Shown in pieces: positions 1,963 through 61,912 of a stretch of 64,000 nucleotides of DNA. The stretch covers positions 52,342-116,341 of the forward strand of contig NZ_JAUMXC010000001.1 in assembly GCF_030529325.1 (NCBI RefSeq), written 5' to 3'. The DNA comes from Porphyromonas sp. GTDB lineage: Bacteria; Bacteroidota; Bacteroidia; Bacteroidales; Porphyromonadaceae. The notes below the pieces were generated by a model, which saw only the letters and a program-made list of their open reading frames with translations, had not been told where the DNA came from and searched no databases. The number at the start of each line of letters is the position of its first letter. Position 1 is the stretch's first letter. The position numbers and the translations under genes were made by a program.

Positions 1963-2302
1963 TTTCAAAATACAATTCTCTTTACAATGGCTCTTACCTC
2001 TACCGACCAAATTATATGGCAAGCGGGTAACAGTCTGCGTTAATAATCAATATTCAAAAACCTTTCACATCACAAAAATAAAGATTTTGAATGGCTTTGC
2101 ACAATAAAGAGACAAATATTTAATGAAAAAAATGTCTAATATTGGCAGAAATACAGATTAATGACGATATTATCGAGAGACAGAGTCTTTTATCAATAAA
2201 AACGGGCACTAATCCTCCCCTATCTTCCTTACCCACGAGCGCATATAGACACCTTGACAACCCATCCAGAAGAACGTCATCTTATCCTCTAAAATATTTT
2301 GA

Positions 2303-2310
2303 TAAATTTG
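2303..2310 (+). promoter_or_regulatory. Bacteroidetes-type -7 promoter box TAAATTTG (TAnnTTTG) about 40 nt upstream of the Hint-protein ATG
   Basis: Matches the sigma-ABfr -7 consensus TAnnTTTG; no other ORF in the 330 bp intergenic region. Confidence 0.3.
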
Positions 2311-2349
2311 CCGTATCAGATAGTGCAAACTCAAAAAATCAATACAACT

Positions 2350-3567
2350 ATGAAACGGGTTTACATCATTTTAGCCATACTCTTATCCATCCAGACAGGA
2401 TATGCCCAGATTAAGGAAATGCATCCTACTCAGACCGAACGATTGGATCTGAGCGCTAAGGGAGAAAAAGCTTTTGAAGCAAAGGCCAAAGCCATACAAA
2501 AGATCTACGAAAAACTGGAGAAAAAGGGTGGTTCGGAAGCCCTAACCAAAAAGGAAAGAGAACTCCTTGACAGCTACGACGACACAATAGACAGTTACTG
2601 GTCCATCATCGGGAGCGGATGTAGCTGGTACTGTGGAGGAGGTACCAAGAGCGTCACGGCCTCAAGCCACCTCAAGGCTCAAGGCTCAATAAACTATCTA
2701 CCCGACAACGCTCATGACCTTAACTATAAGAACGCATGGGCAGAAGGAGTCCCGGGCTACGGGATCGGAGAATACCTGTTGTACACCTTCGATGCAACAG
2801 CTCCACGGATCAATCAGATAATTGTAGTCAATGGTTATGTCAAAAGTAAGACCGCTTGGGAAAACAACTCCAGAGTCAAAAAACTGAAAGTATACATCAA
2901 CAATAAACCCTATGCCATACTCAACCTCAAAGACATAAGAGGATCTCAGACATTCGATGTCGAGCCCATAGGCAACACTCCGAGAGAGAACGAGGAGGAG
3001 ATGCAAAAGAAGGGAGACTGGACAATGAAGTTTGAGATATTGGAAGTATATAAGGGCGCAAAGTATGATGACGTCATCATATCGGAGATCTATTTCGATG
3101 GGTTGGATGTACACTGCCTTGCCAAGGGGACTCCGGTCCTTATGGCGGATATGTCTGAGAAAAACATCGAAGACTTGGAGATCGGCGACCTTGTTGCGTA
3201 TATAGATGGCAAGGAGTTCAAAACCGCACGTATAGAAAAACTTGCAAAAGCAACACATCACGGACTCGTCACCTACAGATTTGAGAGTGGTAGAAGCATA
3301 ACAACAACACAGGATCATCCATTCAGAATAGAAACAAAAGGTTGGTCATCCCTAAGCCCCGAAAAATCGGCTAGGTATAGAGGATTTGAAAAAGTAAGAA
3401 AGGTCGAAATAGGAGACGAATTCGCGACAGCATCAGGCAGAGACCGATTGATTGCAATCGAGCACCTGAACGAGACTCAAGAGACCTACACTATTTCGAA
3501 AATGAACAATGGAGATCACTTCATCGCCAATGGGCTGATCGTAGGGATCGAAGAACTCAACGAATAA
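2350..3567 (+). CDS. Secreted protein: signal peptide + coiled-coil/Lys-rich region + F5/8 type C (discoidin) domain + C-terminal Hint (Hedgehog/intein-like, BIL-type) domain
   Basis: MKRVYIILAILLSIQTGYAQ signal; VTASSHL...AWAEG...ISEIYFDG discoidin-like motifs; Hint block A C-LAKGTPVLMADMS (Cys codon 3115-3117) and block B TTTQDHPF (His codon 3316-3318). The protein ends right after the Hint domain. Confidence 0.6.
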   Translation: MKRVYIILAILLSIQTGYAQIKEMHPTQTERLDLSAKGEKAFEAKAKAIQKIYEKLEKKGGSEALTKKERELLDSYDDTIDSYWSIIGSGCSWYCGGGTKSVTASSHLKAQGSINYLPDNAHDLNYKNAWAEGVPGYGIGEYLLYTFDATAPRINQIIVVNGYVKSKTAWENNSRVKKLKVYINNKPYAILNLKDIRGSQTFDVEPIGNTPRENEEEMQKKGDWTMKFEILEVYKGAKYDDVIISEIYFDGLDVHCLAKGTPVLMADMSEKNIEDLEIGDLVAYIDGKEFKTARIEKLAKATHHGLVTYRFESGRSITTTQDHPFRIETKGWSSLSPEKSARYRGFEKVRKVEIGDEFATASGRDRLIAIEHLNETQETYTISKMNNGDHFIANGLIVGIEELNE

Positions 3568-3630: not shown

Positions 3631-3741
3631 ATAAACAAGATAATATCAGACAATTAAAATCCAAATCTCCACCTCATCGCTCTCCACAATCCGAACCTTC
3701 CCACAAAGGGTCAAAGAAAAGATAAAGAACCTCCCAAATCA

Positions 3742-3803
3742 ATGTGTCTAACTTGATGAATGAAGTTGTCTAACTTGATGCATCAAGTTAGACAACCTTT
3801 TTT
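3742..3803 (+). repeat. Copy 1 of a ~60 bp structured repeat family (GTCTAACTTGA direct units + 14 bp perfect hairpin GTTGTCTAACTTGA-tgca-TCAAGTTAGACAAC + T6)
   Basis: Near-identical copies at 10582, 22312, 49024 (inverted) and 57736. The apparent 61 aa ORF 3760-3945 is an artefact of the repeat sequence. Confidence 0.8.
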
Positions 3804-10421: not shown

Positions 10422-10581
10422 TCCTTACGACATAATAAAAATCGGAAACAGGGTGTGCCATTAAATTGGTCACCCTATTTTCTTTTTCCTCTCTACCGCA
10501 AGCTGCCTACCTGACAAATATATCATCCAGACAACTCATACGACAAAAGACAACAAAGAGGGATATAAACCTGTACAATCG

Positions 10582-10645
10582 ATGTGCCTACCTTGATGAA
10601 TTAAGTTGTCTAACTTGATTCACGAGGTTAGACAACCTTTTTAAT
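10582..10645 (+). repeat. Copy 2 of the structured repeat family (degenerate distal arm: ...GTTGTCTAACTTGA-ttcacgag-GTTAGACAAC + T5)
   Basis: Same architecture as copy 1 but with a C in the first unit (GTGCCTACCTTGA), shared with copy 3. Confidence 0.75.
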
Positions 10646-11785: not shown

Positions 11786-12751
11786 TTAGACCTTCTTGAC
11801 TTTGTACTTATACATGTGACGCCATATCTCTACCATGCAGATAATCCATACGGCAAACAGAGGCAGCGTGACTGCAATTTCTGCGATATTCATCGAGATA
11901 TATCCCAAGCCAATCAACCCCAAACAAAGGTACGAGATTATCACAACTGTCAATCCTATGGCTTTACTCCATCCCCTTTTCAATCGGGAATATTGAACCC
12001 ATCCTAAGACTCCCACCAATGAGATCAGAAGAGTATATGGTGTATTCATCGAACTAAAAAGTCCTATAAATAACAGGAGAGATGACACAAACAGTGGAAA
12101 TATCGGTGCAGGAGAACTCAAATGCCTCACCTTAAGACATGGAAGTAATTGGACATGAAAAAGATTGATGATAAATAACCTCATCACCCAAGCGGGAAGG
12201 ACTTCGTACACCCTCATGATATGGATGAATGAAAACTTTTGTGGTAGGCTCTGAGTGTCGGGAGGCACACCTCGGAAACCTGAGATCCACTCGTAATAGC
12301 TGCTTAGCAACTCTTTGGGGGAGAATATCACCAGTGGTAAGAGTGTAAAGAACAGAGTTGCCACAAGTGCAGTAACTCCAAATTCTCGCTTGCGATCGGT
12401 GAAAAATATCAGGAAGTAACCAAGGAGAGGATGGATCATGAGGACACTACCCAAACTAACAACGGCAGCACTGACCTTGGGATGCGTGTCCAAATACAGA
12501 GCTGCGATCAATATAAAGGGTAGTGATAATAAGATAGGAGAGAAATATCCGACACTGAGGAAAAAAGCCGGTAATAGCAGAAGGAGAAAATATCTGCAAT
12601 TGGGAATAGAAAGAAACATCTTGTAACTGCCCCATAAGACAGCTACAAAATACAGAACAGGGAGGATATAGGGAGTGATGCCTGATGTCGACATCGCCTG
12701 CACCACATCCCATAGTGGTCCTACCCCCTGTCTGTCATAGTAGTCTAACAC
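11786..12751 (-). CDS. Polytopic integral membrane protein (EpsG/Wzy- or glycosyltransferase-like; unassigned)
   Basis: 321 aa, about 9-10 hydrophobic segments; stop lies 16 nt upstream of the channel gene start. Confidence 0.4.
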   Translation of the reverse strand: MLDYYDRQGVGPLWDVVQAMSTSGITPYILPVLYFVAVLWGSYKMFLSIPNCRYFLLLLLPAFFLSVGYFSPILLSLPFILIAALYLDTHPKVSAAVVSLGSVLMIHPLLGYFLIFFTDRKREFGVTALVATLFFTLLPLVIFSPKELLSSYYEWISGFRGVPPDTQSLPQKFSFIHIMRVYEVLPAWVMRLFIINLFHVQLLPCLKVRHLSSPAPIFPLFVSSLLLFIGLFSSMNTPYTLLISLVGVLGWVQYSRLKRGWSKAIGLTVVIISYLCLGLIGLGYISMNIAEIAVTLPLFAVWIICMVEIWRHMYKYKVKKV

Positions 12752-12756
12752 GTCAC

Positions 12757-14334
12757 TTAGAACTCAGAAGTGAAGTGAAACTCAATTTCAGGGAAGTCCT
12801 GCCTTGCCATGTTGAGCAAATAAGCACTGTCAGCCATGTAGACATCTCGACCATGTATATCTACTGCCATGTACTGAGCTTTTCGACGTTTGAAATCTTC
12901 GAGAGCTTCCTTATTGTCCGATGCGATCCAACAAGCCTTGTAGAGACTCACGGGTTCCCATCTACACTGAGCCTGATACTCATGGAGTAGCCTGTACTCG
13001 ATCACTTCAAACTGGAGTTGTCCGACAGTACCTATGATCTTACGCCCATTGAATGTGCTGGTGAAGAGCTGAGCCACACCTTCATCCATGAGTTGATCAA
13101 TCCCTTTTTGCAACTGCTTTGACTTCATAGGATCAGCATTCTCAATGTACTTGAACATCTCGGGAGAGAAACTTGGCAAGCCTTTGAAGTGAAGGTTTTC
13201 ACCGGATGTCAGAGTATCTCCGATCTTGAAATTACCGGTGTCCGGAAGACCGATGATGTCACCGGCAAAGGCATTGTCCACAATCTCTTTTTTCTGAGCC
13301 ATAAAGGCTGTCGGGCTGCTGAACTTCAGGTTTTTATCTAGACGGACATGCCTATAGTTCGTATTACGCTCAAACTGCCCGGAGCATATCTTGACAAAGG
13401 CGATACAACTTCGATGGTTGGGATCCATGTTGGCATGTATTTTGAAGATAAATCCGGTGAATGGCTCTTCGTAAGGATTGACAGTTCGCTCCTCTGCTTG
13501 AGTCGAACGAGGAGAAGGTGCAATACGAACAAAACAGTCGAGCAACTCCTTAACCCCAAAAGTATTGAGAGCCGAACCGAAAAAGACCGGTGCCACTTCA
13601 GCATTGAGATAACTCTCTGTATTTAACTCCGGATAGACTTCACCGATAAGTTCAAGATCATCTTTCAGCTTGGCAGCTTGAGCTTCAGATATGTACTTTG
13701 TGAGTTCATCGCTATTCAAATCCAACTCTACACGCTCAGAGATCTTCTGCTTGTCGGGAGTATAAATATCAAGACCTTTTTCAAAGATGTTATAAACCCC
13801 TTTGAAGCGTTCTCCGGAATCTATCGGCCAAGAGAGCGGAGTGACTGCAATCTGAAGTTCTTCCTCAATCTCATCAAGCAGATCAAAGGGATCTTGACTC
13901 TCTCTATCCATCTTATTGACAAAGACGATCACAGGAGTCTTACGCATGCGACAAACCTCCATCAAACGCTTAGTCTGTTGCTCCACACCTCTCGCACCAT
14001 CAATGACGATAATGACACTATCCACCGCGGTCAGAGTCCTATATGTATCCTCAGCAAAATCTTGGTGACCCGGAGTATCAAGAATATTGATCTTGTAACC
14101 ATCATAGTTGAATCCCATTACAGACGTAGCTACAGAGATTCCCCTTTGCTTTTCGATCTCCATCCAGTCGGAAGTAGCAGTCTTCTTGATTTTATTGCTT
14201 TTTACAGCGCCTGCGACATGTATCGCACCCCCAAAAAGGAGCAACTTCTCGGTCAATGTAGTCTTACCGGCATCCGGGTGGGCAATAATCGCGAAAGTAC
14301 GACGTCTTGATATTTCAGCTTGATTATATTGCAT
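12757..14334 (-). CDS. prfC: Peptide chain release factor 3
   Basis: RTFAIIAHPDAGKTTLTEKLLL GTPase with RF3-type domains; start at MQYNQAEISRRR (ATG 14334). Confidence 0.9.
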   Translation of the reverse strand: MQYNQAEISRRRTFAIIAHPDAGKTTLTEKLLLFGGAIHVAGAVKSNKIKKTATSDWMEIEKQRGISVATSVMGFNYDGYKINILDTPGHQDFAEDTYRTLTAVDSVIIVIDGARGVEQQTKRLMEVCRMRKTPVIVFVNKMDRESQDPFDLLDEIEEELQIAVTPLSWPIDSGERFKGVYNIFEKGLDIYTPDKQKISERVELDLNSDELTKYISEAQAAKLKDDLELIGEVYPELNTESYLNAEVAPVFFGSALNTFGVKELLDCFVRIAPSPRSTQAEERTVNPYEEPFTGFIFKIHANMDPNHRSCIAFVKICSGQFERNTNYRHVRLDKNLKFSSPTAFMAQKKEIVDNAFAGDIIGLPDTGNFKIGDTLTSGENLHFKGLPSFSPEMFKYIENADPMKSKQLQKGIDQLMDEGVAQLFTSTFNGRKIIGTVGQLQFEVIEYRLLHEYQAQCRWEPVSLYKACWIASDNKEALEDFKRRKAQYMAVDIHGRDVYMADSAYLLNMARQDFPEIEFHFTSEF

Positions 14335-14354
14335 GATGATATTGATTAGAGTGC

Positions 14355-15263
14355 TTAAATCGTAATATTGTCTATCTTGTATACTTCCCGAAGAGCTTCC
14401 TCCCAAGGCTTGACAATCTCAGGAAGGAGATTTTGGATCTTCTCAGTGTTCAAAGGGGAATAACTTGGGCGTTTGGCAATTGTCTTGTAGTCCTTTTGAG
14501 TACAAGGAGAGATCTCGATGTTTTTGGTTTGTGGATCAAGATCCAAGATAGCCTTCGCAAAGTCATATCTTGTCACCTCTCCCATATCAGAATAATGATA
14601 CAGCCCGAAAGGAATACCCTCGTTCGCTTTCATCAATTGGATAACTCTCACAACTGCACGGGCAAGTTCTATAGCAGAGGTGGGACTTCCTGTCTCATCA
14701 TTGACGACAGTGAGAGGAGTTCCCTCAAGAGCTTTTTTGCGAATAACATTATAGAAGTTTTTGCCGTATGGGGAATAAAGCCATGCCGTGCGCCAGATAT
14801 AGGCTGTGGGACAATTGGCCAAGACACCTTCTTCTCCTTCCAGCTTTGATTTTGCGTAGAAATTGGCAGGATTAGGAGTATCACCTTCTTTGTAAGAATG
14901 GAGACGTTCCGGAGATCCTTCACCACCAAAAACATGATCTGTACTAAAGTGAAACAAAACCCTGTTTTGTTTTCGGCAAAGTTCAGCCAATTGTATTGGG
15001 AGCTCGGTATTGAGACGTATAGCTTCTTTGCAATTGATTTCAGCATCGTCTACACCTGTAAATGCAGCGGCATTGACGACCACGTCAGGCTTGTAAAAGT
15101 TAAAAAACCTCTCTACCTCTTGAGGTAAAGTGAGGTCAATGACATTACGGATAGTGGGCAACCATTTGATACCCTCTGCATCACCAAAGTTTCTTATTAT
15201 AGAGTTACCCAATTGCCCACCTGCACCCGTGAGCCATGCGGTTAGTTGCTTCTTTCTGCTCAT
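14355..15263 (-). CDS. rfbD: dTDP-4-dehydrorhamnose reductase
   Basis: LTGAGGQLG Rossmann motif and STDHVFGG motif; 302 aa RmlD-like. Confidence 0.8.
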   Translation of the reverse strand: MSRKKQLTAWLTGAGGQLGNSIIRNFGDAEGIKWLPTIRNVIDLTLPQEVERFFNFYKPDVVVNAAAFTGVDDAEINCKEAIRLNTELPIQLAELCRKQNRVLFHFSTDHVFGGEGSPERLHSYKEGDTPNPANFYAKSKLEGEEGVLANCPTAYIWRTAWLYSPYGKNFYNVIRKKALEGTPLTVVNDETGSPTSAIELARAVVRVIQLMKANEGIPFGLYHYSDMGEVTRYDFAKAILDLDPQTKNIEISPCTQKDYKTIAKRPSYSPLNTEKIQNLLPEIVKPWEEALREVYKIDNITI

Positions 15264-15835
15264 GCCTCGTTCAGTTTGATATTACCGGCCTCTATCTCAC
15301 AATATCGATCAGCAAGAAGGGCCAAAAATGTACTTATCTGCTTGATTGCAGAGAGAGTTTCTTCTGAGACGTCTTTCCCCTTCATCTTTAAAGTTAAATA
15401 ACCGTACACTCCGACAAAACAAGTTTCTATCTCATTCTGCTGAGTGTCGTTACTCAATGTCCTAAGCTGAATGATCGAAGGTAAAGTCTTGTAATACAGA
15501 GTTGAGTATATAGATTGCACCGGCATCTTGAGAAGCTGCTGATGGATAACATTGAGTTCGATAAGCAAAGATTGTATCATAGGCACATGACCTGACGATA
15601 TCGTATTGCTTCTGAGCATCTCATCTCTAAGCCGGAGGTACCACTCGATAACATCTTGCACCGGCTCTCCCTCTTTGTTGTAGTTTTGAGAAACATAGTC
15701 CTCAATAGCTTTATCATCTCCGCCCAAAGCTCTGATAATATCCTCTATCTGAAACATGTAGAGGATATATTCTGAGATATTCTCCTTTCTTTTTTTCTGT
15801 GCTACAAACATATATTCTTTCCGCTTATAAAACAA
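15260..15835 (-). CDS. Hypothetical protein (DUF4924-like, conserved upstream of mutS2 in Bacteroidetes)
   Basis: 191 aa with no catalytic motifs; assignment is by position and memory only. Confidence 0.35.
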   Translation of the reverse strand: MFYKRKEYMFVAQKKRKENISEYILYMFQIEDIIRALGGDDKAIEDYVSQNYNKEGEPVQDVIEWYLRLRDEMLRSNTISSGHVPMIQSLLIELNVIHQQLLKMPVQSIYSTLYYKTLPSIIQLRTLSNDTQQNEIETCFVGVYGYLTLKMKGKDVSEETLSAIKQISTFLALLADRYCEIEAGNIKLNEA

Positions 15836-15840
15836 TCGAT

Positions 15841-18303
15841 CTATATATCGAGTTCTACCACTGTGATACCGGCCCCGCCAAGATCCACATGCTCATCTTT
15901 GAACTTTTTGACCAAAGGCATTCCCCCCAATTGCTGTCTTATGGCTTCACGGAGAGCTCCTGTCCCCGTACCATGAAGGATTCGAACCGGCGAATAAGCA
16001 AATCTCACAGCATCATCAATGAAGTAAGTCACACTCTGCATCGCCTCATCCACTCGCATCCCCCTGCAATCCAACTGAGGTTTAAAGTTCAACCTTCGGT
16101 CATCGTCCAAACTTTCGATGACAGCAGGCTTACGCTTGATGATCCCTGTAGCTTCCTTTATGCTTGGTGATAGTTTCGACAAGGGTAATACCATCAACAA
16201 GCTTCCCAGCCGAATACGAGCCTTATTTTTCATCAATTCGACGACTTCCCCGACCTCATTAGAGCCCTCAACAGAGACATTACTACCGACTTCTATCTTT
16301 AATTTTTCTTTATCGACTTGAGGTGAAGCGTCTGTTTTCTTGCTCTTCTTTTCCGATTTCTCTTTCTGAGAAATATTCGTCAAAAGATTTTTCTTTTTCT
16401 CCTCAAGCTTCTGTCTAAGGATCTTCGTAGACTCTTTTTCCGCGTTCTTCTCCTTTATCTCACGAATGGTTTTTTCCACCGTTGCATTTGCGGATGCAAT
16501 GATCTGCATCGCCTCCTTTTCAGCTTTGGATATGAGGATCTTTCTGTCCGAACTTAACTTATCAAGACGTTCTTGGAGCTTTGTTTTGAGTTGCTCGAGC
16601 TCTTTCTCTTGTCTGTGAATCTTATTACGCTTTTCCTCCCAGTATTTTTTATCTCTCATGATGTCTTGGAGATACTTATCTTGCATGACATAATCTGTAC
16701 CTACAAGATTTTCAGCATAGTCCAAGATATCAGAAGAGAGTCCTATTTTACGAGCAATTTCTATCGCAAACGAACTACCGGGCTTACCTATAAAGAGCTG
16801 ATACAAAGGCCGGATCTGTTGTCTATCAAAAAGCATTGCTCCGTTTATCACGCCCTTGTGAGTTTCCGAATAGTCTTTGAGATTACCATAATGGGTCGTT
16901 ATCATCCCAAAACAGCCGACTTTGACGAACTGATCAAGAAGAGCCTCTGCAATGGCCCCCCCAATTATAGGTTCTGTCCCTGATCCGAACTCATCTATCA
17001 ATATGAGGGTATGTTTATCTGCATTTCTGCAGAAATACTTCATGTTCAAAAGATGAGAAGAGTAAGTACTCAAATCATTTTCAAGGGACTGTTCATCTCC
17101 AAGGTTCAGAAATATCTTCTTAAACAAACAACAAGTAGAGTGATCCGATACCGGTATGGGCAATCCGCATTGAAGCATGTACTGCAGAAGTCCCACAGTC
17201 TTCAAGGTCGCAGATTTCCCACCGGCATTGGGTCCGGATATTACGAGTATACGTTTTTCGTGTGAAAGAGTGATATCGAGCGGTACAATCTCCTTGTGTT
17301 GAGACTTTAGATGTTGTTCAAGTAGAGGATGTCTTGCCCCATACCATTCCATTCTCTTGTGAGGTGTTATTGTAGGCACGATGGCATTTAATCTACCTCC
17401 AAGTCGAGATTTGGCTTTTGCAAAGTCAAGTATACCTATCAAGGTACAATTTAACTGTACTGCCGGAAGATCAGGTCTCAACACTGAGGTAAACTCCTTT
17501 AAGAGACGAGTGATTTCTCTTTTCTCCTCGCTGAGTTTTTCCCGGATTTTATTATTCATCTCCACCAACTGCTCAGGTTCGACAAAAAGCGTTTTACCTG
17601 TTGCAGACTCATCGTGGACAATTCCTCTCATTTCCCTCTTAGCAGACGGGATGATAGGTAGCAAGAGACGGCCTTCACGCAAAGTCGGATGAGCATCTTT
17701 TTCCACCCAACCTTGAGCTTGAGCATGTTTGAGGAGACTCTGTATCGTTGAACCTATAGAACTGTTGAGAGCCCTCAAATCCTGACGGATATCTCGTAAA
17801 ATTCTTGAAGCAGAGTCCTTGACATTTCCCTCTTCATCGATGAGATTGTGTATGCGACGACGTATGTCCGGTAGAGTATTTATACCCGATACGACTTTAT
17901 GGAGGTTGGGGTAAGGATAATCCTCATCCCCGGAGTATTCAAAAGTCTTGATCACTTGAAGACATGCAGTAAGGAGTTCCCCGAGAGCCACGACACCTTC
18001 AATAGGCAAAAATGCTCCCTCAGGACGAATACCATAGATATAGGCTCTCAGATCTCCAAAACGCAGTAGAGGCACATCTTTACCTGAAGTCAACAAATGC
18101 ATCATCTCACGCACATGGGCAAGTCGCTCTCCGAGTTCCTTCGGATCATTCATAAATGCCATATTTTCTGCGAGATGCCTGCTGACTTCATTGTCACACA
18201 AGCGATAGACTTCAGCACGTATGATGCCGAAGTCCAACCTATCTTCAAATGTTGAGGGGAAGATATTACTTTTCAGTTTCGTCTTACTCTCGTTGCCTTT
18301 CAT
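15841..18303 (-). CDS. mutS2: Endonuclease MutS2
   Basis: 820 aa with MutS ATPase domain (GPNAGGKS) and C-terminal Smr domain. Confidence 0.9.
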   Translation of the reverse strand: MKGNESKTKLKSNIFPSTFEDRLDFGIIRAEVYRLCDNEVSRHLAENMAFMNDPKELGERLAHVREMMHLLTSGKDVPLLRFGDLRAYIYGIRPEGAFLPIEGVVALGELLTACLQVIKTFEYSGDEDYPYPNLHKVVSGINTLPDIRRRIHNLIDEEGNVKDSASRILRDIRQDLRALNSSIGSTIQSLLKHAQAQGWVEKDAHPTLREGRLLLPIIPSAKREMRGIVHDESATGKTLFVEPEQLVEMNNKIREKLSEEKREITRLLKEFTSVLRPDLPAVQLNCTLIGILDFAKAKSRLGGRLNAIVPTITPHKRMEWYGARHPLLEQHLKSQHKEIVPLDITLSHEKRILVISGPNAGGKSATLKTVGLLQYMLQCGLPIPVSDHSTCCLFKKIFLNLGDEQSLENDLSTYSSHLLNMKYFCRNADKHTLILIDEFGSGTEPIIGGAIAEALLDQFVKVGCFGMITTHYGNLKDYSETHKGVINGAMLFDRQQIRPLYQLFIGKPGSSFAIEIARKIGLSSDILDYAENLVGTDYVMQDKYLQDIMRDKKYWEEKRNKIHRQEKELEQLKTKLQERLDKLSSDRKILISKAEKEAMQIIASANATVEKTIREIKEKNAEKESTKILRQKLEEKKKNLLTNISQKEKSEKKSKKTDASPQVDKEKLKIEVGSNVSVEGSNEVGEVVELMKNKARIRLGSLLMVLPLSKLSPSIKEATGIIKRKPAVIESLDDDRRLNFKPQLDCRGMRVDEAMQSVTYFIDDAVRFAYSPVRILHGTGTGALREAIRQQLGGMPLVKKFKDEHVDLGGAGITVVELDI

Positions 18304-19622
18304 CAGAAAAAGAATCGTCGTATGTCATTGACATTGGCATAAAGCATCAAGAACAGTAGGAAAAATAAGCCTGCCATCTGTATGCGCTCTTGCACCTTGA
18401 TCGACAATTTTCTACGGGTGATGATTTCAAAAATCAAAAATATGATATGCCCGCCATCAAGGCCGGGGATGGGCAAGATATTCATTACAGCAAGCATAAC
18501 AGACAGAAAAGCCGTCATACTCCAAAAGTCTATCCATGAAAATCTCTCAGGGAAAAGGCTACCAATGGTACCCAATCCTCCAATCTTAGACGCACCCTCC
18601 TTCGTAGCAACATACTTGAGCGAAGAAACGTAAGCTCCGAGTCTCTTAAAAGTCTTGCCTATACCGACAGGTATTGATTCAAAAAAGCCATAACTGACCT
18701 CCTCGACTCCCAAAGCCTTGGCCGGAGGCATAAAACTGATCCCTATACCTTTCTCCGCATCGATGTAGCTCCTCAAAGCAATCTTCTCTCCACCTCTTAT
18801 CACAAGAAGAGTCGCAGAGTCCCCCTTAGCCGAAGATATAGCGTCTATAACTTCTCCAAGATGAGAAGTTTCTTTTTCTGCCACGGCAATAATTTTATCC
18901 CCGGACTCCAATCCGGCCTTATGGGCTTCTCCACCATCCAACACAGCGTCTATCACACATGGAGGTTGCAAACGGTAAAGAGTACTATCCGAACTGATAA
19001 TAGCCCTCATCAGATCTGTTGGGATCGATATATCCAAGAGTTTCCCTGCCCTCTCGACAGTCAGCACCTCACCCTTACTGATCATCTGGAGTATCGACTC
19101 ATCAAAATATTTGAATTCTACCTTATCTATAGCGACGGGGAGATCACCATCCTGAAGGCCCATACGATGTCCCACACTTGAGTAGACGAGATTATCTCCG
19201 ACATTCTTCATCGGGATCTTGACATCTCCCCAAGTATATGATATCCCCGAATAGATTGCAAATGCAAGGATTACATTGAATAGTACACCACCAAGCATGA
19301 CCAATAGGCGTTGCCATGCAGGTTTGGCTCTGAATTCCCATGCTTGAGCCTCGCTGGCCCACCCTTTCGTATCCATTGACTCATCGACCATACCTGAAAT
19401 TTTGCAGTACCCGCCGAGAGGCAACCATCCGATGCCGTACTCAGTATGACTACCTTTGGGTTTATACTTGATCAAGGAAAACCAAGGATCAAAAAACAGG
19501 TAGAACTTATCTACCCGAATCTTGAATAGTCGAGCAAAGAGGAAGTGTCCCAGCTCATGTATAAAGACCAATATCCCAAGAGAGAGTATCAGTTGAAATG
19601 CTTTGATTAGAAATATACTCAT
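18303..19622 (-). CDS. rseP: RIP zinc metalloprotease RseP (site-2 protease)
   Basis: HELGHFLFARLF HExxH motif in TM1, PDZ region, C-terminal LDGG motif. Confidence 0.9.
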   Translation of the reverse strand: MSIFLIKAFQLILSLGILVFIHELGHFLFARLFKIRVDKFYLFFDPWFSLIKYKPKGSHTEYGIGWLPLGGYCKISGMVDESMDTKGWASEAQAWEFRAKPAWQRLLVMLGGVLFNVILAFAIYSGISYTWGDVKIPMKNVGDNLVYSSVGHRMGLQDGDLPVAIDKVEFKYFDESILQMISKGEVLTVERAGKLLDISIPTDLMRAIISSDSTLYRLQPPCVIDAVLDGGEAHKAGLESGDKIIAVAEKETSHLGEVIDAISSAKGDSATLLVIRGGEKIALRSYIDAEKGIGISFMPPAKALGVEEVSYGFFESIPVGIGKTFKRLGAYVSSLKYVATKEGASKIGGLGTIGSLFPERFSWIDFWSMTAFLSVMLAVMNILPIPGLDGGHIIFLIFEIITRRKLSIKVQERIQMAGLFFLLFLMLYANVNDIRRFFF

Positions 19623-22088: not shown

Positions 22089-22232
22089 CAGGGCAACCGC
22101 ATCAAAAATCTCGATAAAATACAAGTTGCTGATTTTCAAATGATTGCATTTTAGGATTATATTCAAAGATAAAGAATGCACTCAAAACCATGATTGATAA
22201 TCAGGCACTTACATTTTGATGCGATTGCCCTG
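22089..22232. mobile_element. 144 bp MITE with 19 bp terminal inverted repeats (CAGGGCAACCGCATCAAAA / rc CAGGGCAATCGCATCAAAA) and perfect 9 bp target-site duplication CAAACATTA (22080-22088 and 22233-22241)
   Basis: IRs and TSD read directly from the sequence; the same terminus CAGGGCAACCGCATCAA flanks the transposase remnant at 40495. Confidence 0.75.
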
Positions 22233-22311
22233 CAAACATTACCCCACCTTGAGTCAGAGAGTTTTTTTCTGAATAGGGTATCAAGAATGAGATGTACATC
22301 TCTCGAAATCG

Positions 22312-22373
22312 ATATGCCTACCTTGAGAAATGAAGTTGTCTAACTTGACGCATCAAGTTAGACAACCTTTTTC
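22312..22373 (+). repeat. Copy 3 of the structured repeat family (hairpin GTTGTCTAACTTGA-cgca-TCAAGTTAGACAAC + T5)
   Basis: Near-identical to copies 1/2/4/5; sits 193 bp upstream of the aminotransferase ATG. Confidence 0.8.
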
Positions 22374-46764: not shown

Positions 46765-46842
46765 TGTACGTTTTTTTTAAGATTAATGATTAATACATTG
46801 TTTATTCTCTATGGGCTACTTATTTCTTCCGAAATAAATCTG

Positions 46843-46930
46843 CGGAGAGAGCGGGATTCGAACCCGCGATACGCTTTTGGCGTATACACGCTTTCCAGGC
46901 GTGCCTCTTCAGCCACTCGAGCATCTCTCC
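46843..46930 (-). tRNA. tRNA-Ser (anticodon GGA), long variable arm; CCA not encoded
   Basis: Minus-strand GGAGAGATGCTCGAGTGG...CACGC-CTGGAAA-GCGTG...GCGGGTTCGAATCCCGCTCTCTCCG: 7 bp acceptor stem, T-loop GGTTCGAATCC, anticodon loop CT-GGA-AA. Confidence 0.85.
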
Positions 46931-48810: not shown

Positions 48811-49023
48811 TACAATTTTACTTAATGAGCGGTAAAGATAATAATCTTTGCAGGTACCGAACATCATTTGACAGGCAAAAAAAACTCTCCCCGGTGATGA
48901 GAGGCCCTATATTTTCAGGGACACATATGCTATAATATTTAGTCGGAGCATTGTAACTCCCCAAAATGCCCCACATTGAAGCTTACCGTAAACCACGTAT
49001 CCTCAAAGACTTGAAAGGGTATA

Positions 49024-49090
49024 AAAAAGGTTGTCTAACTTGACGTATCAAGTTAGACAACTTCATTCATCAAGTTAGACACCTGAATTT
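49024..49090 (-). repeat. Copy 4 of the structured repeat family, inverted orientation (rc: ...GTGTCTAACTTGATGAATGAAGTTGTCTAACTTGA-tacg-TCAAGTTAGACAAC + T6)
   Basis: Reverse-complement alignment to copies 1/3/5 is near-perfect; oriented toward ispB, about 212 bp upstream of its ATG. Confidence 0.8.
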
Positions 49091-49250
49091 CGACAGATGT
49101 ACGTCTTTTTTCTCAATATTTAATTTAGGATAGCCTCATAAGGAAGGACTACAAGTCAAATCGAGCCGATATCAAACAGCCCCATACTCCCATCACCTTG
49201 GACACCCGAGTATTTGCACTCTGCAGTTAAGATATATCAGTCAATTATAC

Positions 49251-52332: not shown

Positions 52333-52407
52333 AGCTCCAAATGCCTATATGGTCAACCGTATATTGATAAATTTAATAACACACAACGTGCTGAAAAACC
52401 CCGAACA

Positions 52408-56006: not shown

Positions 56007-56042
56007 TCAACTCTGATTGACCTTATAAAAGGGTCACGAACA

Positions 56043-56090
56043 AACAAGAAACCCCACTCAGATATGTTCTGAGTGGGGTTTCTTGTTTTA
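56043..56090 (+). terminator. Strong rho-independent terminator after nrdB
   Basis: Perfect 19 bp stem ACAAGAAACCCCACTCAGA-tatgt-TCTGAGTGGGGTTTCTTGT followed by TTTA. Confidence 0.75.
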
Positions 56091-56188
56091 TAGCCATAGT
56101 GCGGCAAAACACATGAGACAGGGGCAATGCTGCCAAGATTGCATCCCCATTTTCAGTTCACTAATAGAGAGGACAGTCTAACTTACAA

Positions 56189-56611
56189 TTGTGGCAGTGT
56201 GGTGTACTGAAAAAAGTTGACAGTAGCGGAGGAGAAAAAATCAAGAACCCACTAACCAAACATTTCAGTATTCCGGAGCGCCTTCACATTCTCGAAGAAT
56301 ATCTCGGCTCGGACCTCAGCAAGTATGCCATCGAGAAGAAATATGGCTTGAATCGGGGGAGTATTTACTTTTGGCTTCGTAAATTCGGGTTATCAGACAA
56401 GCTTAAAACAGAAGTCATGAAAACTCCGACAGATGATAATGCGCTCAGCATGAGCGAACAAAAGGAATTAGCACGTCTTCGCAAGGAGATCCGTCAGCTC
56501 AGAGCAAAACTCAAACACGAGGAGCCGGGACACAAAGCCTACAAGTTGCTCGTTGAATTGGCAGAAGAAACCCACGGCATCGAGATAAGAAAAAACTCCG
56601 AAGCCAAGTAG
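56189..56611 (+). CDS. IS3 OrfA (HTH transposase N-terminal part); true start uncertain
   Basis: HTH region LHILEEYLGSDLSKYAIEKKYGLNRGSIYFWLRKFG and leucine-zipper-like C-terminus; the ORF-track start is a TTG lying partly outside IR-L. Confidence 0.65.
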   Translation: MWQCGVLKKVDSSGGEKIKNPLTKHFSIPERLHILEEYLGSDLSKYAIEKKYGLNRGSIYFWLRKFGLSDKLKTEVMKTPTDDNALSMSEQKELARLRKEIRQLRAKLKHEEPGHKAYKLLVELAEETHGIEIRKNSEAK

Positions 56612-57713
56612 TTCAGCGTTTGTCAGAGGACAATCGGCCTCATCATCCTGTCACTCTTCTCTGCGAACTGCCCGGCTTCAGCCGTCAGGCTTACTATAAA
56701 CGCAACCTCAGGACTCCAAGTCCCTACGAATCAGAGATCTTGGAGACAAGCATCATCCTCTACTTCAGGCATTTGCGAAGGAGAGAACACCTTCCCAAAG
56801 CCGGCTTCAGGGAGTTGTTCCTGCTGTGCAAAGAATACTTCGGGGAAAAGTTCCTCATCGGCAGAGATCGCTTCTGTGCCCTGATGAGAGCCAATGAGTT
56901 AATACTTCGTAAGCGACGTTATCGCCCCCATACAACCAACTCCGACCATCACTTCCACAAATACGAAGATCTGCTCAATACCGAATCGAAATATGAGTCC
57001 AAGAAGCCGGGAGATCTCCTTGTGGCTGACATCACTTACATCTCCTATCGTGGCGGTTTCGCCTGTTTATCCCTCCTTACAGATGTATACAGCCGTTGTA
57101 TCGTGGGGCACTGTCTGCACCCGACACTTGAAGTGGAGGGCTGTATCTCGGCCCTCGAACAAGCATTTGACTTCTATAAAAGACATAAGACAGACATCAA
57201 AGAAATGATCCGTCACAGCGACCGGGGAGTACAGTACGCTTCTACCCGGTACACGAAACTTCTCACCGATCGGGGGGGGCCGCATCAGCATGACCCGTAC
57301 GGGAGACCCGCTTCATAACGCCCCGGCCGAAAGGATAAACAACACCCTGAAAAACTCGTGGTATATCTCCTCCGAGGACCAAACACTCGAGGAAGCAAAG
57401 CAAGCAGTGGCACGAGCCGTCCGGATGTACAACGAAGCTCGCCCACATCAGTCTATCGGAGGACGGACACCCATGCAACTATTGCAGAAAGAAGTTCAAA
57501 ATCTCCTTGTCCCCACCAAAGGACAAGATTGGACAATCTCTCCTAAGCTCTATGCAATGATGAATCCCGAACAAAGAGCCAAATTTGCATCGTGTCAACG
57601 TTTATGGCCCTAACCAAAGGACGCCGTAAACCCAAGACTATTATAAAGATCTATTGTGTAAACTAAGTATGAAACTTGCCTCCACTACTGTCAACTTTTT
57701 TCAGTACACCACA
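56198..57713 (+). mobile_element. IS3-family insertion sequence (1.5 kb) with 35 bp terminal inverted repeats TGTGGTGTACTGAAAAAAGTTGACAGTAG(C/T)GGAGG
   Basis: IR-L 56198-56232 and IR-R 57679-57713 (1 mismatch); orfA/orfB organisation with -1 slippery heptamer A_AAA_AAC at 56590-56596. Confidence 0.8.
56620..57613 (+). pseudogene. IS3 OrfB (DDE integrase core) disrupted by a +1 frameshift in a G8 homopolymer at 57272-57279
   Basis: Two ORF-track pieces, 56620-57318 and 57290-57613; an intact reading ...KLLTDRG-RISMTRTGDPLHNAPAERINNTLK is restored if the G tract is 7 instead of 8. Confidence 0.75.
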
Positions 57714-57735
57714 GGGTAAGGGACTTTCTAAATCA

Positions 57736-57793
57736 AGGTGTCTAACTTGATGAATTAAGTTGTCTAACTTGAGAGATCAAGTTAGACAACTTG
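57736..57793 (+). repeat. Copy 5 of the structured repeat family (hairpin GTTGTCTAACTTGA-gaga-TCAAGTTAGACAAC, no T-run)
   Basis: Lies 22 bp after IS3 IR-R; 224 bp upstream of the rocD ATG. Confidence 0.8.
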
Positions 57794-58016: not shown

Positions 58017-59252
58017 ATGCTCAACATTTCACCTAAAGCACAACAATTCATTGATCAAGAACACCAGTTCGGAGCACATAATTATCACCCCCTTGGCGTA
58101 GTACTTTCGAGAGGCAAAGGGGCTTTTGTATGGGACGTAGACGATAAAAAGTACTTTGACTTCCTTTCGGCATACTCAGCTGTCAATCAAGGTCACTGCC
58201 ACCCCAAGATCATCGCTGCACTTACTCAGCAGGCAGAGACACTTTGTCTCACTTCGAGAGCATTTTACAACGACGCATTGGGGCCATTTGAGGAGTTTAT
58301 ACACAACTACTTCGGCTACGACAAAATGTTGCCGATGAACAGTGGTGCCGAAGCTGTGGAGACAGGTCTCAAGCTCGCACGCCGCTGGGGATACCGTGTC
58401 AAGGGGATACCTGCGGACAAAGCGATCATCGTCGTGTGCGAAGGCAACTTCCACGGACGTACGATCAGTATCGTATCCATGTCTACAGACCCGGACTCAT
58501 TCTCAGATTACGGGCCTCACACTCCGGGCTTTATAAAAGTACCTTACAATGACTTGAAAGCTCTCGAAAAGGTAATGAATGAGTATGGAGACAAGATCGC
58601 CGGAGTGCTTGCGGAGCCTATCCAAGGCGAAGCCGGAGTCGTTGTCCCACACGACGGCTATCTCAAGGGCTTGGTCGAACTTTGTCGCAAGCACAATGCC
58701 CTCTTCATCGCCGATGAGATCCAGACGGGTATCGCCCGCACAGGGAAGATGCTGGCTTGCGATCACGAGGGAGTGCGTCCTGATATCGTACTACTCGGCA
58801 AGGCCATATCCGGAGGTGTACTTCCGGTGTCTCTCGTATTGGCAGACAACCCTGTGATGTTGACCATCAAGCCGGGTGAGCACGGCTCGACATACGGAGG
58901 CTTCCCTCTGGCTTGTAAGGTAGCAAGAGCAGCCCTTACTGTCGTAAAAGAAGAAAACCTGATAGAAAATGCAGAACGCCTCGGAGAGGTATTCCGTCGC
59001 GAACTCGAAGCCATCGACAGTCCGTTCATCTCTCTCGTCCGAGGCAAAGGTCTACTCAATGCAGTAGTGATCAAGCCTCACAACGGATATGAAGCGTGGA
59101 ACGTATGTGAGGTGATGGCCAATAAGGGGCTTCTCGCAAAGCCTACACACCGACATATCATCAGATTTGCACCACCACTATGTATCACCGAAGAGCAACT
59201 CTTGGAAGCTATTGGCATCATCAGATCCGCACTCGAAGAGCTATCTCAGTAA
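58017..59252 (+). CDS. rocD: Ornithine--oxo-acid aminotransferase
   Basis: Class III aminotransferase; N-terminus FGAHNYHPL...[15 protein letters not shown] typical of OAT. Confidence 0.85.
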
Positions 59253-59278
59253 ACATTGCATAAATCTCCCATTGGCCT

Positions 59279-60214
59279 ATGGCAACTCAATCAAGACAGA
59301 CGACGGATACCGTCTTTATGGTGAGACCTTACAACTTCACCTTCAACATCCATACCGCCGAAGACAATCACTTTCAGACTCCCGACCCTGCGCTCATAGA
59401 GAAGTCTCATGAGTTGGCTCTCGCAGAGTTTGATGCCTTTGTGACCCTACTTAGGGACAATGGTGTCAAGGTCGTTGTCGCGGAGGACACAGCGTCTCCC
59501 GCCACACCGGACTCATTGTTCCCCAACAACTGGTTTTCGACCCACGAAGACGGGACAATGATGCTCTATCCGATGTACACGGACAATCGCAACAAGGAGA
59601 GTTACAAAAATGCACTTTTTCAGACCCTTAAAACGGCCTTTGATCCGGTCAAGGTGACAGACCTCAGACCTTATCGGGAAAAAGGGCTGATGCTGGAGGG
59701 GACAGGTTGTCTCATCTTGGATAGAGTGAACAAGATCGTCTATGCATGCCGATCGGAGCGCATCTCGGAGCCATTACTTGATATCTTCTGTCAAGAGATG
59801 GGGTACAAGTCCGTCGTGTTTGATGCTCTCGACCGTCAGGGGCTACCGATCTACCACACCAACGTCATGATGGCTCTTGCTGAGAAGTTTGCAGTGATAT
59901 GCTTGGAGTGCATCCGAGACGAGAAAGAGCGTGAAAAAGTCGTGGAAAGCCTAAAAAGCACAGGGCATGAGATAGTGGACATCACACTCGATCAAGTGTA
60001 CAAATATGCCGGCAATATGCTCTCGGTACGCACTCACGATACAGGTTATCCTCTCATGGTGATGTCTCGTCAGGCGTACGACAGCCTCACACAGGATCAG
60101 ATACGACAGATAGAGTCTCACGCCCGCATCCTGGCACCCTCTCTTCTGACCATAGAGACGCTCGGAGGAGGCTCAGCAAGGTGTATGATGGGAGAGATTT
60201 ATGAGCATAAATAA
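59279..60214 (+). CDS. Amidinotransferase/arginine-deiminase-fold protein (CtlX-like citrulline utilisation hydrolase)
   Basis: 311 aa with C-terminal catalytic-Cys region GGGSARCM; located between rocD and pruA. Confidence 0.55.
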   Translation: MATQSRQTTDTVFMVRPYNFTFNIHTAEDNHFQTPDPALIEKSHELALAEFDAFVTLLRDNGVKVVVAEDTASPATPDSLFPNNWFSTHEDGTMMLYPMYTDNRNKESYKNALFQTLKTAFDPVKVTDLRPYREKGLMLEGTGCLILDRVNKIVYACRSERISEPLLDIFCQEMGYKSVVFDALDRQGLPIYHTNVMMALAEKFAVICLECIRDEKEREKVVESLKSTGHEIVDITLDQVYKYAGNMLSVRTHDTGYPLMVMSRQAYDSLTQDQIRQIESHARILAPSLLTIETLGGGSARCMMGEIYEHK

Positions 60215-60280
60215 ACAATAAGCTCATGAGATTAGTTATTAAAGCAGTTGAACTATAAAATCAGATAAAATTTATTACCT

Positions 60281-61912
60281 ATGGACAATATTTTATATGC
60301 GTTTGAAAGACCTGTAAACGAACCGGTCAAGACATATGCTCCCGGGACTAAAGATCGAGAACTTCTCAAGGCTGCAGTGCAGAAGTGGGAAACTCAGGAG
60401 ATCGAAATCCCCCTCATCATCGACGGAAAGGAAGTCCGCACAGGAGATGTAGGAAAGGTGGTGATGCCTCACAATCACAAGAAAGTCATCGCAACCTACC
60501 ACAAAGCGGGCGAAAAGGAAGTCAAAGCTGCTATCAAAGCTGCCAATAAAGCTCACAAAGAGTGGTCAAAGATGCCATGGCTCGAGCGTGCCTCTATCAT
60601 GATGAGACTTGCTGAACTTTGCTCCGGTAAGTACCGCTACGACCTCAATGCTTCGGTCATGGTCGGTCAATCTAAAAACCCCATGCAGGCAGAGATCGAT
60701 GCTCCATGTGAGATGATCGACTTCTTGAGATTCAGCGCATATTATGCAGGAAAGATATACTCAGAGCAGCCTCTTTCAGAACAAGGTGTTTTCAATCGTT
60801 TGGAATATCGTCCTCTCGAAGGGTTCGTGTTTACCCTCACTCCATTCAACTTCACATCCATAGCAGCCAATCTCAACCTCGCACCTGCGATGATGGGTAA
60901 TACCTGCGTATGGAAGCCATCTACAACATCTCTTCACTCCAACTACTTCCTCATGAAGTTGTTCGAAGAAGCAGGCTTACCTGCAGGTGTCGTGAACTTC
61001 ATCCCCGGTCAGGGTAGCATGATCGGTAAGGAAGTACTTGCAGATCCATCGTTTGCAGGATTCCACTTCACAGGCTCGACAGCGACATTCAACGCTCTTT
61101 GGAAGGGTATTGGTAACAATATCTCCAACTATCGCTCATATCCTAAGATCGTCGGGGAGACAGGAGGTAAAAACTTCGTCCTTGCGCACCCTTCATCAGA
61201 TCCGAGAGAAGTTGCAGTGGCATTGGCTCGTGGAGCATTTGAATACCAAGGTCAGAAGTGTTCAGCTGCATCTCGTGCGTACATCCCAAAATCTTTGTGG
61301 AAAGAAATCAAAGGTCTCCTCGAAGAAATGGTATCAAGCATGAAGATCGGAGATGTCAACGACTTCACCAACTTCATCAACGCAGTTATCGACGAGGCTT
61401 CGTTTGACAACATCAAGAGCTATATCGATCATGCTAAGAAAGCGAGCGATGCGAAAGTTGTCATAGGTGGCAAGTGTGACAAGAGCGTAGGATACTTCGT
61501 CCAACCAACAGTCATCGAAACAACAAATCCCACATACAAGAGCATGGTGGAAGAGATCTTTGGTCCGGTGCTCACAGTGTACGTATACGAGGATGAAGAC
61601 TTCACAAAGGTACTCAAGCTCGTGGATGGTTCGACAGCTTACGGTCTCACAGGCTCGATCTTCTCTCGTGACAGATATGCTGTCAGAGACGTATTGGATG
61701 CATTGAGATTCTCAGCGGGTAACTTCTACATCAATGACAAACCTACCGGTGCAGTAGTGGGACAACAACCATTCGGTGGTTCTCGTGCTTCGGGAACAAA
61801 CGACAAGGCCGGAGGACCACTCAACCTCCTCCGTTGGGTCAACCCACGCAACATCAAAGAGACATTCCAGTCTCCTACAGAATACACTTATCCATTCCTC
61901 ATGCAGGATTGA
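60281..61912 (+). CDS. pruA: L-glutamate gamma-semialdehyde (1-pyrroline-5-carboxylate) dehydrogenase
   Basis: Aldehyde dehydrogenase superfamily, 543 aa; catalytic EGGQKCSAASR and ETGGKN motifs. Confidence 0.85.
   Translation: MDNILYAFERPVNEPVKTYAPGTKDRELLKAAVQKWETQEIEIPLIIDGKEVRTGDVGKVVMPHNHKKVIATYHKAGEKEVKAAIKAANKAHKEWSKMPWLERASIMMRLAELCSGKYRYDLNASVMVGQSKNPMQAEIDAPCEMIDFLRFSAYYAGKIYSEQPLSEQGVFNRLEYRPLEGFVFTLTPFNFTSIAANLNLAPAMMGNTCVWKPSTTSLHSNYFLMKLFEEAGLPAGVVNFIPGQGSMIGKEVLADPSFAGFHFTGSTATFNALWKGIGNNISNYRSYPKIVGETGGKNFVLAHPSSDPREVAVALARGAFEYQGQKCSAASRAYIPKSLWKEIKGLLEEMVSSMKIGDVNDFTNFINAVIDEASFDNIKSYIDHAKKASDAKVVIGGKCDKSVGYFVQPTVIETTNPTYKSMVEEIFGPVLTVYVYEDEDFTKVLKLVDGSTAYGLTGSIFSRDRYAVRDVLDALRFSAGNFYINDKPTGAVVGQQPFGGSRASGTNDKAGGPLNLLRWVNPRNIKETFQSPTEYTYPFLMQD

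Follow-up and report, generated by a model that had tools for sequence, protein, structure and literature searches.

Repetitive extragenic palindromes (REPs), also arranged as bacterial interspersed mosaic elements (BIMEs), occur in Proteobacteria and other phyla, and REPINs (REP doublets forming hairpins) are mobilized by REP-associated tyrosine transposases (RAYTs). Members of the REP class carry a conserved unpaired tetranucleotide tag (GTAG or CGTC/TGTC) at the stem end together with a short unpaired tail, and only CGTC-type repeats have been reported from the Bacteroidota (PMC3733652). In Porphyromonas gingivalis, the BrickBuilt or PgRS (MITE464) elements span 84–991 nt and are present in tens of copies; they combine 23- or 41-nt tandem units (up to ~23 units) with a leader, a tail, and terminal inverted repeats of the IS5 type (GAGACC...GGTCTC) (PMC4596501). 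Here we describe a dispersed palindromic repeat from a 64-kb stretch of an uncultured Porphyromonas sp. (positions 52,342–116,341 of contig NZ_JAUMXC010000001.1; hereafter “the window”), which we interpret, with moderate confidence, as a lineage-specific non-coding repeat of the REP/BIME/MITE kind (MITE, miniature inverted-repeat transposable element) that has been spread and reshuffled between intergenic sites by an enzyme or by recombination. The repeat is previously undescribed, although ordinary in kind.

The likeness to REPs and BIMEs lies in the short, dense, and strictly extragenic palindromes, the conserved stem beside a variable loop, the lineage-specific sequence, the combination of direct and inverted units as mosaics of variants, and the potential for side effects as a terminator or mRNA stabilizer. 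There is also a formal likeness to the CGTC/TGTC-tagged REP class (PMC3733652): a TGTC tag, an 8-bp stem started by A/T (TAACTTGA), and a 4-nt loop. However, the TGTC in the present repeat is base-paired with GACA and the palindrome runs through for 14 bp, so that there is no unpaired GTAG or CGTC tag; the CCA tail is absent, the arms are longer (14 bp), and a 22-nt tandem period and a T-run are added. With BrickBuilt/PgRS the repeat shares the genus, a consistently intergenic location, restriction to a species, and short tandem units that fold into stem-loops, but it has only 2.4–2.8 units, neither leader nor tail, and no such terminal repeats, and its sequence is unrelated to the published BrickBuilt/PgRS terminal repeats. 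Correia elements of Neisseria, as well as RUP, BOX, ERIC, and bcr1, are similar in being intergenic (~100 nt) with long hairpins and possible effects on termination or mRNA stability; the 26-bp terminal inverted repeats, TA duplication, and integration host factor site of Correia elements are all absent. A first-pass annotation of the window, made from the letters alone, had named a “REP/Correia-like element” as one of three options; the REP half of that description fits best, whereas the Correia half falls away for want of terminal inverted repeats and a target duplication.

Anatomy and intergenic placement of the copies

Five copies (copies 1–5) lie inside the window, exactly where the first-pass annotation had placed them, and two more (copies 6 and 7) were found in flanking Logan contigs assembled from short reads of the species:

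Copy 1: 3721–3803, + strand; degenerate 5′ unit at 3721–3743, unit 1 (GTGTCTAACTTGA) at 3744–3756, spacer at 3757–3764, hairpin at 3765–3796 (14-bp arms, loop TGCA), T6 at 3798–3803; 153 nt past the stop of the NADase_transloc/Hint gene and 242 nt ahead of rarA, all on the + strand.
Copy 2: 10561–10645, + strand; unit 1 is the variant GTGCCTACCTTGA at 10584–10596, hairpin at 10605–10636 with a decayed top (10 perfect pairs, then G·U and U-A, 8-nt loop), then T5; between convergent genes for an aspartate ammonia-lyase-like protein (+) and an ion channel (−), 139 nt past the stop of the co-oriented gene.
Copy 3: 22291–22373, + strand; unit 1 is the variant ATGCCTACCTTGA at 22314–22326, hairpin at 22335–22366 (loop CGCA), then T5; between divergent genes with TAnnTTTG promoter boxes on either side at 22164 (−) and 22508 (+), ~135 nt upstream of the nearest box.
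Copy 4: 49023–49106, − strand (inverted); unit 1 at 49070–49082, 5′ unit like that of copy 3, hairpin at 49030–49061 (loop TACG on its own strand), T6 at 49023–49028; between divergent genes for a polyprenyl synthetase (−) and a Met-zincin (+), with a promoter box found only for the + gene (49251).
Copy 5: 57714–57793, + strand; unit 1 at 57738–57750, hairpin at 57759–57790 (loop GAGA), extendable to 16 bp (57757–57792), T-run lost (CTTGTTC); 5′ edge touching the right end of an IS3-family element, 224 nt ahead of a class-III aminotransferase gene.
Copy 6: contig L005, 10687–10748, ~4.4 kb beyond the window end; 157–160 nt upstream of a co-oriented gene start.
Copy 7: contig L020, 8333–8415, ~4.6 kb ahead of the window start; between convergent tRNA and nitroreductase genes, each with its own terminator hairpin.

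With up to one mismatch allowed, the window contains 13 instances of the motif GTCTAACTTGA where 1.2 would be expected, and 12 of the 13 are inside the five copies; for the full hairpin pattern GTTGTCTAACTTGA-N4-8-TCAAGTTAGACAAC, the corresponding figures are four observed and none expected. A chance origin was rejected. A profile built from the five copies recovered all of them with nhmmer at E ~1e-27 and found no further or degenerate copies in the window. In a general repeat search, this was the sole dispersed repeat family in the 64 kb, the other notable repeat being the terminal repeats of a single insertion sequence (IS). Where the first-pass annotation extrapolated to hundreds of copies genome-wide, the measured figure is seven copies in ~73 kb of window and flanking contigs. 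Among the Logan contigs, 10 of 13 ends fall within a copy (both ends in the case of L004 and L005), which is the behavior expected of a repeat that is present at several places in the genome.

Alignment of the copies with their flanks gives a copy length of ~83–85 nt, with similarity that begins ~23 nt upstream of the previously reported start (53% identity over this 5′ unit) and ends at the T-run. Each copy is laid out as 2.4–2.8 tandem units of 22 nt (Tandem Repeats Finder; consensus AATCAAGTTGTCTAACTTGATG), followed by an inverted unit that closes a hairpin, and then by the T-run. The 5′ extension agrees with the unit at 12–13 of 22 positions, as judged by eye, and may therefore represent a decayed third unit. 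The 22-nt unit is itself palindromic (ATCAAGTT-GTCT-AACTTGAT), such that the 7-mers AACTTGA and TCAAGTT alternate every 11 nt with 4-nt spacers between them; copies 1, 3, 4, and 5 each contain two of the resulting 7-4-7 palindromes at a distance of 22 bp, and no solitary 7-4-7 palindromes exist elsewhere in the window. The last direct unit and the inverted unit pair as a 14-bp hairpin (13–16 bp across copies) with a 4-nt loop, in an AT-rich stem (5 of 14 pairs are G-C); in an alternative fold the right arm is paired with unit 1, and both folds are found among the predicted minimum-energy structures. Predicted folding energies range from −22.6 to −31.7 kcal/mol (z = −4.7 to −6.8). The loops were as first reported (TGCA, TTCACGAG, CGCA, TACG, and GAGA), as was a perfect stem in four window copies, the hairpin of copy 2 being decayed. 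The tandem units and hairpin described in the first-pass annotation are likewise borne out, whereas its T-run is not universal: T5–7 follows the hairpin in six of the seven copies and is lacking in copy 5.

All seven copies are intergenic. The window is ~88% coding, and all five of its copies are situated in the non-coding 11.6% (0.116^5 ~2e-5), in spacers that are five of the dozen longest (~400–750 nt, vs. a median of 50 nt). The repeat is the only module that these spacers have in common, and homology between copies ends within ~85–105 nt. The neighboring genes are functionally unrelated; those downstream encode RarA, two aminotransferases, the polyprenyl synthetase, and a DUF5686 protein. 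Five of the seven copies lie 157–242 nt upstream of a co-oriented gene start. No orientation rule can be claimed, since only copies 1 and 5 are informative on orientation relative to tandem genes.

A hairpin followed by a T-run is the form of a Rho-independent terminator, and the copies could be intrinsic terminators or insulators of the host, kept because the hairpin and U-tract halt transcription or read-through. In a consensus scan of the first 20 kb, no terminator-like site scored above copies 1 and 2, and no other listed site intervenes between them and the co-oriented stops that precede them by 153 and 139 nt, respectively; the distance of five copies to the next co-oriented start would fit shielding from upstream transcription, and long-stem terminators are used elsewhere in this genome (e.g., the 21-bp stem at 56042–56088). 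However, the position at a co-oriented 3′ end holds for copies 1 and 2 and not for copies 3 and 4, which are upstream of both divergent neighbors and so have no upstream transcript to stop, and it is redundant for copies 5 and 7: copy 5 is without a T-run and a terminator already follows the upstream nrdB, while copy 7 is placed between two genes that each possess one. The ~50 nt conserved on the 5′ side of the hairpin would be superfluous for termination, and the stem is identical at unlinked loci, several of them away from the 3′ ends of transcription units, without the free variation expected of independent terminators. The positions of copies 3, 4, 5, and 7 therefore indicate that termination is not the reason for the existence of the family, but at most a side effect, and we regard a terminator origin as unlikely. 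The “terminator-bearing insulator” of the first-pass annotation is plausible as a terminator at copies 1 and 2, without accounting for the family.

Conservation, pairing, and mosaic units

Conservation is concentrated in the hairpin arms and the adjacent unit. Mean pairwise identity is 100% in the left arm (6/6 copies), 88% in the right arm, 87% in unit 1, 82% in the inter-unit spacer, and 72% in the T-run, compared with 38% in the loop and 34–45% in the flanks. None of the six type-A copies departs from the common left arm, including those in which the right arm is altered. The stem of copy 6 has one U·G pair and one C·C mismatch, and in copy 2 the top of the stem is lost. The first-pass annotation had read the constant stem and changing loop as “compensatory conservation” of structure. 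Across the window copies and copy 6, in either fold, no pair has changed on both sides, and the pattern in the window is one of identical arm sequence beside a free loop; the structural argument thus finds no support inside the window, and the divergent copy 7, outside it, is the one copy that speaks for it.

In copy 7 the hairpin is formed from the variant unit GTGCCTACCTTGA with the right arm TCAAGATAGGCAC. Two pairs are fully compensatory (U-A to G-C and U-A to C-G), and a third is altered on both sides, giving C·A on its own strand and G·U on the other strand; this level of pairing was reached by just 7 of 500 shuffles. Complementarity is thus kept in a divergent copy. The restoration of complementarity when a different unit forms the hairpin could reflect selection on pairing, or an inverted arm that was templated from the direct arm. 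The same variant unit, together with the ATCGAT that precedes it in copy 7, recurs as unit 1 of copies 2 and 3, and copies 3 and 4 have a 5′ unit in common. Because variant units recur in this way across copies, the copies are mosaics of a few unit types.

The regular spacing of the 7-mers also raises the possibility of a cis-acting binding cassette, in which AACTTGA-N4-TCAAGTT at a 22-bp interval would be bound as duplex DNA by a dimeric or oligomeric host protein (a regulator, a nucleoid-associated protein, or an insulator protein). The paired 7-4-7 palindromes of copies 1, 3, 4, and 5 are found nowhere else in the window, their half-sites are fixed while the central 4 nt are free, as in an operator, and the constraint inside the window is on sequence rather than on pairing, with a left arm that does not vary among the type-A copies; the location of five copies 157–242 nt ahead of a co-oriented start would suit such a role. 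Yet the downstream genes form no functional group, copy 3 is remote (~135 nt) from the nearest promoter box, copies 2 and 7 are between convergent genes, a perfect palindrome with 14-bp arms exceeds typical operators, and copy 7 has altered both arms concordantly, which indicates pairing or templated symmetry and not one fixed recognition sequence. We consider a binding cassette of this type improbable. The related proposal of the first-pass annotation, a regulator-binding cassette, survives in part: an operator of a regulon is unlikely given the unrelated genes, whereas palindromes phased at 11/22 bp keep recognition by a protein possible, and that protein could be the enzyme that spreads or homogenizes the units. 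Two specific candidates were discarded, namely a regulon operator (downstream genes unrelated) and an FNR-type box (TTGA-N4-TCAA here, compared with N6 in the FNR consensus).

Distribution of the repeat and its genomic neighborhood

Assemblies of the species available for comparison with the window were the metagenome-assembled genome (MAG) GCA_030528425.1, which is 99.89% identical over 20.4 kb, and Logan contigs from SRR24915849 and SRR24915846, which are identical to the window. The MAG (L003) differs from the window by 23 single-nucleotide polymorphisms (SNPs), 20 of which fall within 12.0–18.4 kb (12032–18353), with none in 1–9 kb except at position 614 and none in repeat copies; this uneven strain divergence could reflect recombination.

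Beyond the species, the exact type-A hairpin pattern gave only two chance matches among GTDB species genomes (a Planctomycetia MAG and Mycobacterium) and none in JGI metagenomes or IMG/VR. The type-B hairpin gave nine matches in JGI metagenomes, all of them unrelated hairpins with no flank similarity and a GC content of 37–66%. A blastn search of the element against plasmids and phages returned nothing. Approximately 45 kb from three Porphyromonas lineages (RarA 84, 80, and 76% identical) contained neither a copy nor an analogous repeat family; rarA synteny is not conserved in the relatives for which gene context was recovered, and the one upstream spacer recovered from the nearest relative shows no evident kinship on inspection by eye. 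The peptide of the spurious open reading frames that start in the repeat (MKLSNL..QVRQPF) gave nothing at E ≤ 10 in a tripled-alignment profile search. A literature search yielded no relevant paper with the motif (texts containing one of the 11-mers were unrelated human, yeast, and other studies) and no mention of the accession numbers. Within the limits of the sampling, the family thus seems confined to this one species-level lineage.

No copy matched an Rfam family at the gathering threshold, or meaningfully at E ≤ 1 (tRNA-Ser alone passes in the window); the best sub-threshold match on a copy scored 27.1 bits against a gathering score of 45. This bears on the notion that the copies are genes for a multicopy small RNA (sRNA), or for an sRNA derived from a 3′ untranslated region, whose transcript would stop at the hairpin with its U-tract. 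In Bacteroides, multicopy families of sRNAs are reported, the predicted structure is stable with a terminator-like 3′ end, and ~85 nt is a plausible size. In addition to the absence of an Rfam family, however, none of the five spacers scanned has a TAnnTTTG promoter box upstream of the element on its own strand, conservation is lowest in the 5′ part, and compensatory variation is lacking in the window, making an sRNA gene very unlikely.

The IS whose end adjoins copy 5 is the sole IS in the window and flanks:

IS3-family element, ISPg5-like: 56198–57713; right end against the 5′ edge of copy 5.
Solitary GTCTAACTT 9-mer: 56176–56184, + strand; 13 nt left of the left end of the IS3 element.

The IS3 element has 35-nt terminal inverted repeats (97% complementary; ends TGTGGTGTACTG...) that are unrelated to the repeat, and the repeat is therefore not a piece of this IS. 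It encodes an orfA with a helix-turn-helix domain (56189–56611) and an orfB that is split into 56620–57318 (rve) and 57290–57613 (rve_3) by a frameshift near 57300, from which the element is probably inactivated. The orfB fragment is 71% identical to P. gingivalis ISPg5; a database search returned no identical copy of the transposase (best match 81%), and no 3-bp target duplication of the element is visible. Apart from this instance and those in the five copies, the 9-mer is absent from the window (0.49 occurrences expected per 64 kb); it is possibly a remnant unit that was split from copy 5 by the IS insertion; the IS3 element may have landed within or beside a larger composite copy.

That copy 5 abuts the IS3 element, with the solitary 9-mer 13 nt from its other end, is what could be offered in favor of the copies being fragments of a longer known mobile element, such as IS ends or the attachment site of a phage or an integrative and conjugative element. 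Set against this are the unrelated IS3 ends, the lack of a nearby IS at the other copies, the absence of plasmid and phage matches, and the ~85–105 nt limit to the homology between copies; we judge such an origin to be highly improbable, and the small-element interpretation of the first-pass annotation holds in this respect. A recombination site of the attC/dif/lox type was rejected because the spacer is 4 nt long, housekeeping genes separate the copies, and an integrase is lacking.

Several neighboring features are of separate interest. Just past nrdB (stop at 56006), positions 56042–56088 form a perfect 21-bp inverted repeat with a 5-nt loop and a T-rich tail, probably the native nrdB terminator, and indicating that this genome uses very long terminator stems. 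By copy 7, ~4.7 kb upstream of the window start, a tRNA 3′ end is followed by a terminator of its own, a 16-bp hairpin with T6 (L020 8430–8519), and contig L020 ends inside the tRNA gene. The gene ahead of copy 1 (2299–3567, +) encodes a 422-aa protein with an NAD glycohydrolase translocation F5/8 type C domain (PF25302, E = 1.5e-56) and weak, sub-threshold Hint and AXH matches, an unusual domain combination; the product might be a toxin or a self-processing protein. Downstream of copy 5, 58017–61912 (+) encodes a class-III aminotransferase, a eukaryote-type dimethylarginine dimethylaminohydrolase (PF19420, E = 5.6e-98), and an aldehyde dehydrogenase, and this three-gene run may be an arginine/ornithine catabolic cluster. 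The sole structured RNA gene detected in the window is a tRNA-Ser(GGA) at 46842–46930 (−). Other gene content includes PorV, a DUF4953/5117/5118 Met-zincin, and DUF6935, at a GC content of 41–48%, in keeping with a Bacteroidota genome; the RarA protein is listed at NCBI under “Porphyromonas sp.”

A probable REP-like repeat family in Porphyromonas

We place the family with REP-like repeats because it is strictly extragenic, dense, confined to a single lineage, mosaic, independent of gene function, and disruptive of short-read assemblies. Under this interpretation, which implies that the repeat is mobile, a trans-acting enzyme or recombination would recognize the conserved unit or hairpin, spread copies to permissive intergenic sites, and reshuffle units between copies, and the copies would persist where long spacers tolerate them. 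Where the T-run side faces a co-oriented gene end (copies 1 and 2), we infer that the hairpin and U-tract probably terminate transcription, or protect the mRNA 3′ end, as a by-product.

A number of observations weigh against this assignment. The sample comprises seven copies from one region of one genome, and the same copies, free of SNPs, are present in all three assemblies of the species, which offer neither an empty site nor a presence/absence polymorphism. The copies possess no terminal inverted repeats (they open with a degenerate direct unit and close with a T-run, with inverted repeats internal only), and in alignments with flanks no direct repeat indicative of a target-site duplication flanks any copy, the 5′ flanks being merely A/G-rich. 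The window holds no candidate transposase, its sole IS having unrelated ends; likewise, no RAYT (Y1/HUH) transposase gene is found among the annotated genes of the window and flanks. Finally, the loops and 5′ units vary while the arms are identical, which is not predicted by simple recent copy-and-paste of whole elements and requires either selection or homogenization acting on the arms, or hypermutable loops.

In a more specific and rather doubtful form of the REP-like reading, the repeats would be the substrate of an uncharacterized maintenance system of the Bacteroidota, in which a dedicated protein recognizes the phased 7-4-7 palindromes or the hairpin. Such a protein could be a transposase, whether HUH/RAYT-like and domesticated or of another type, or else bind DNA in a structure-specific manner, and it would disperse or homogenize units such that arms stay identical while loops drift and new hairpins arise from variant units, as in copy 7. 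As far as we found, no such system has been studied in Bacteroidota in the literature. If this were the case, the family would constitute a REPIN-like “sequence population” with another architecture, in which a 22-nt unit is repeated in tandem, the tag is base-paired, and the tail is that of a terminator.

For the Porphyromonas lineage itself, the repeat explains fragmentation of short-read assemblies and MAGs and provides a compact, species-specific typing marker. It is also a candidate case of a repeat family that scatters terminator-like hairpins through a Bacteroidota genome. On current evidence, it is a small repeat family with little bearing on open questions; if the cognate enzyme that we infer exists, REP/RAYT-type biology would reach Porphyromonas, and a hairpin-specific DNA-recognition module would come with it.

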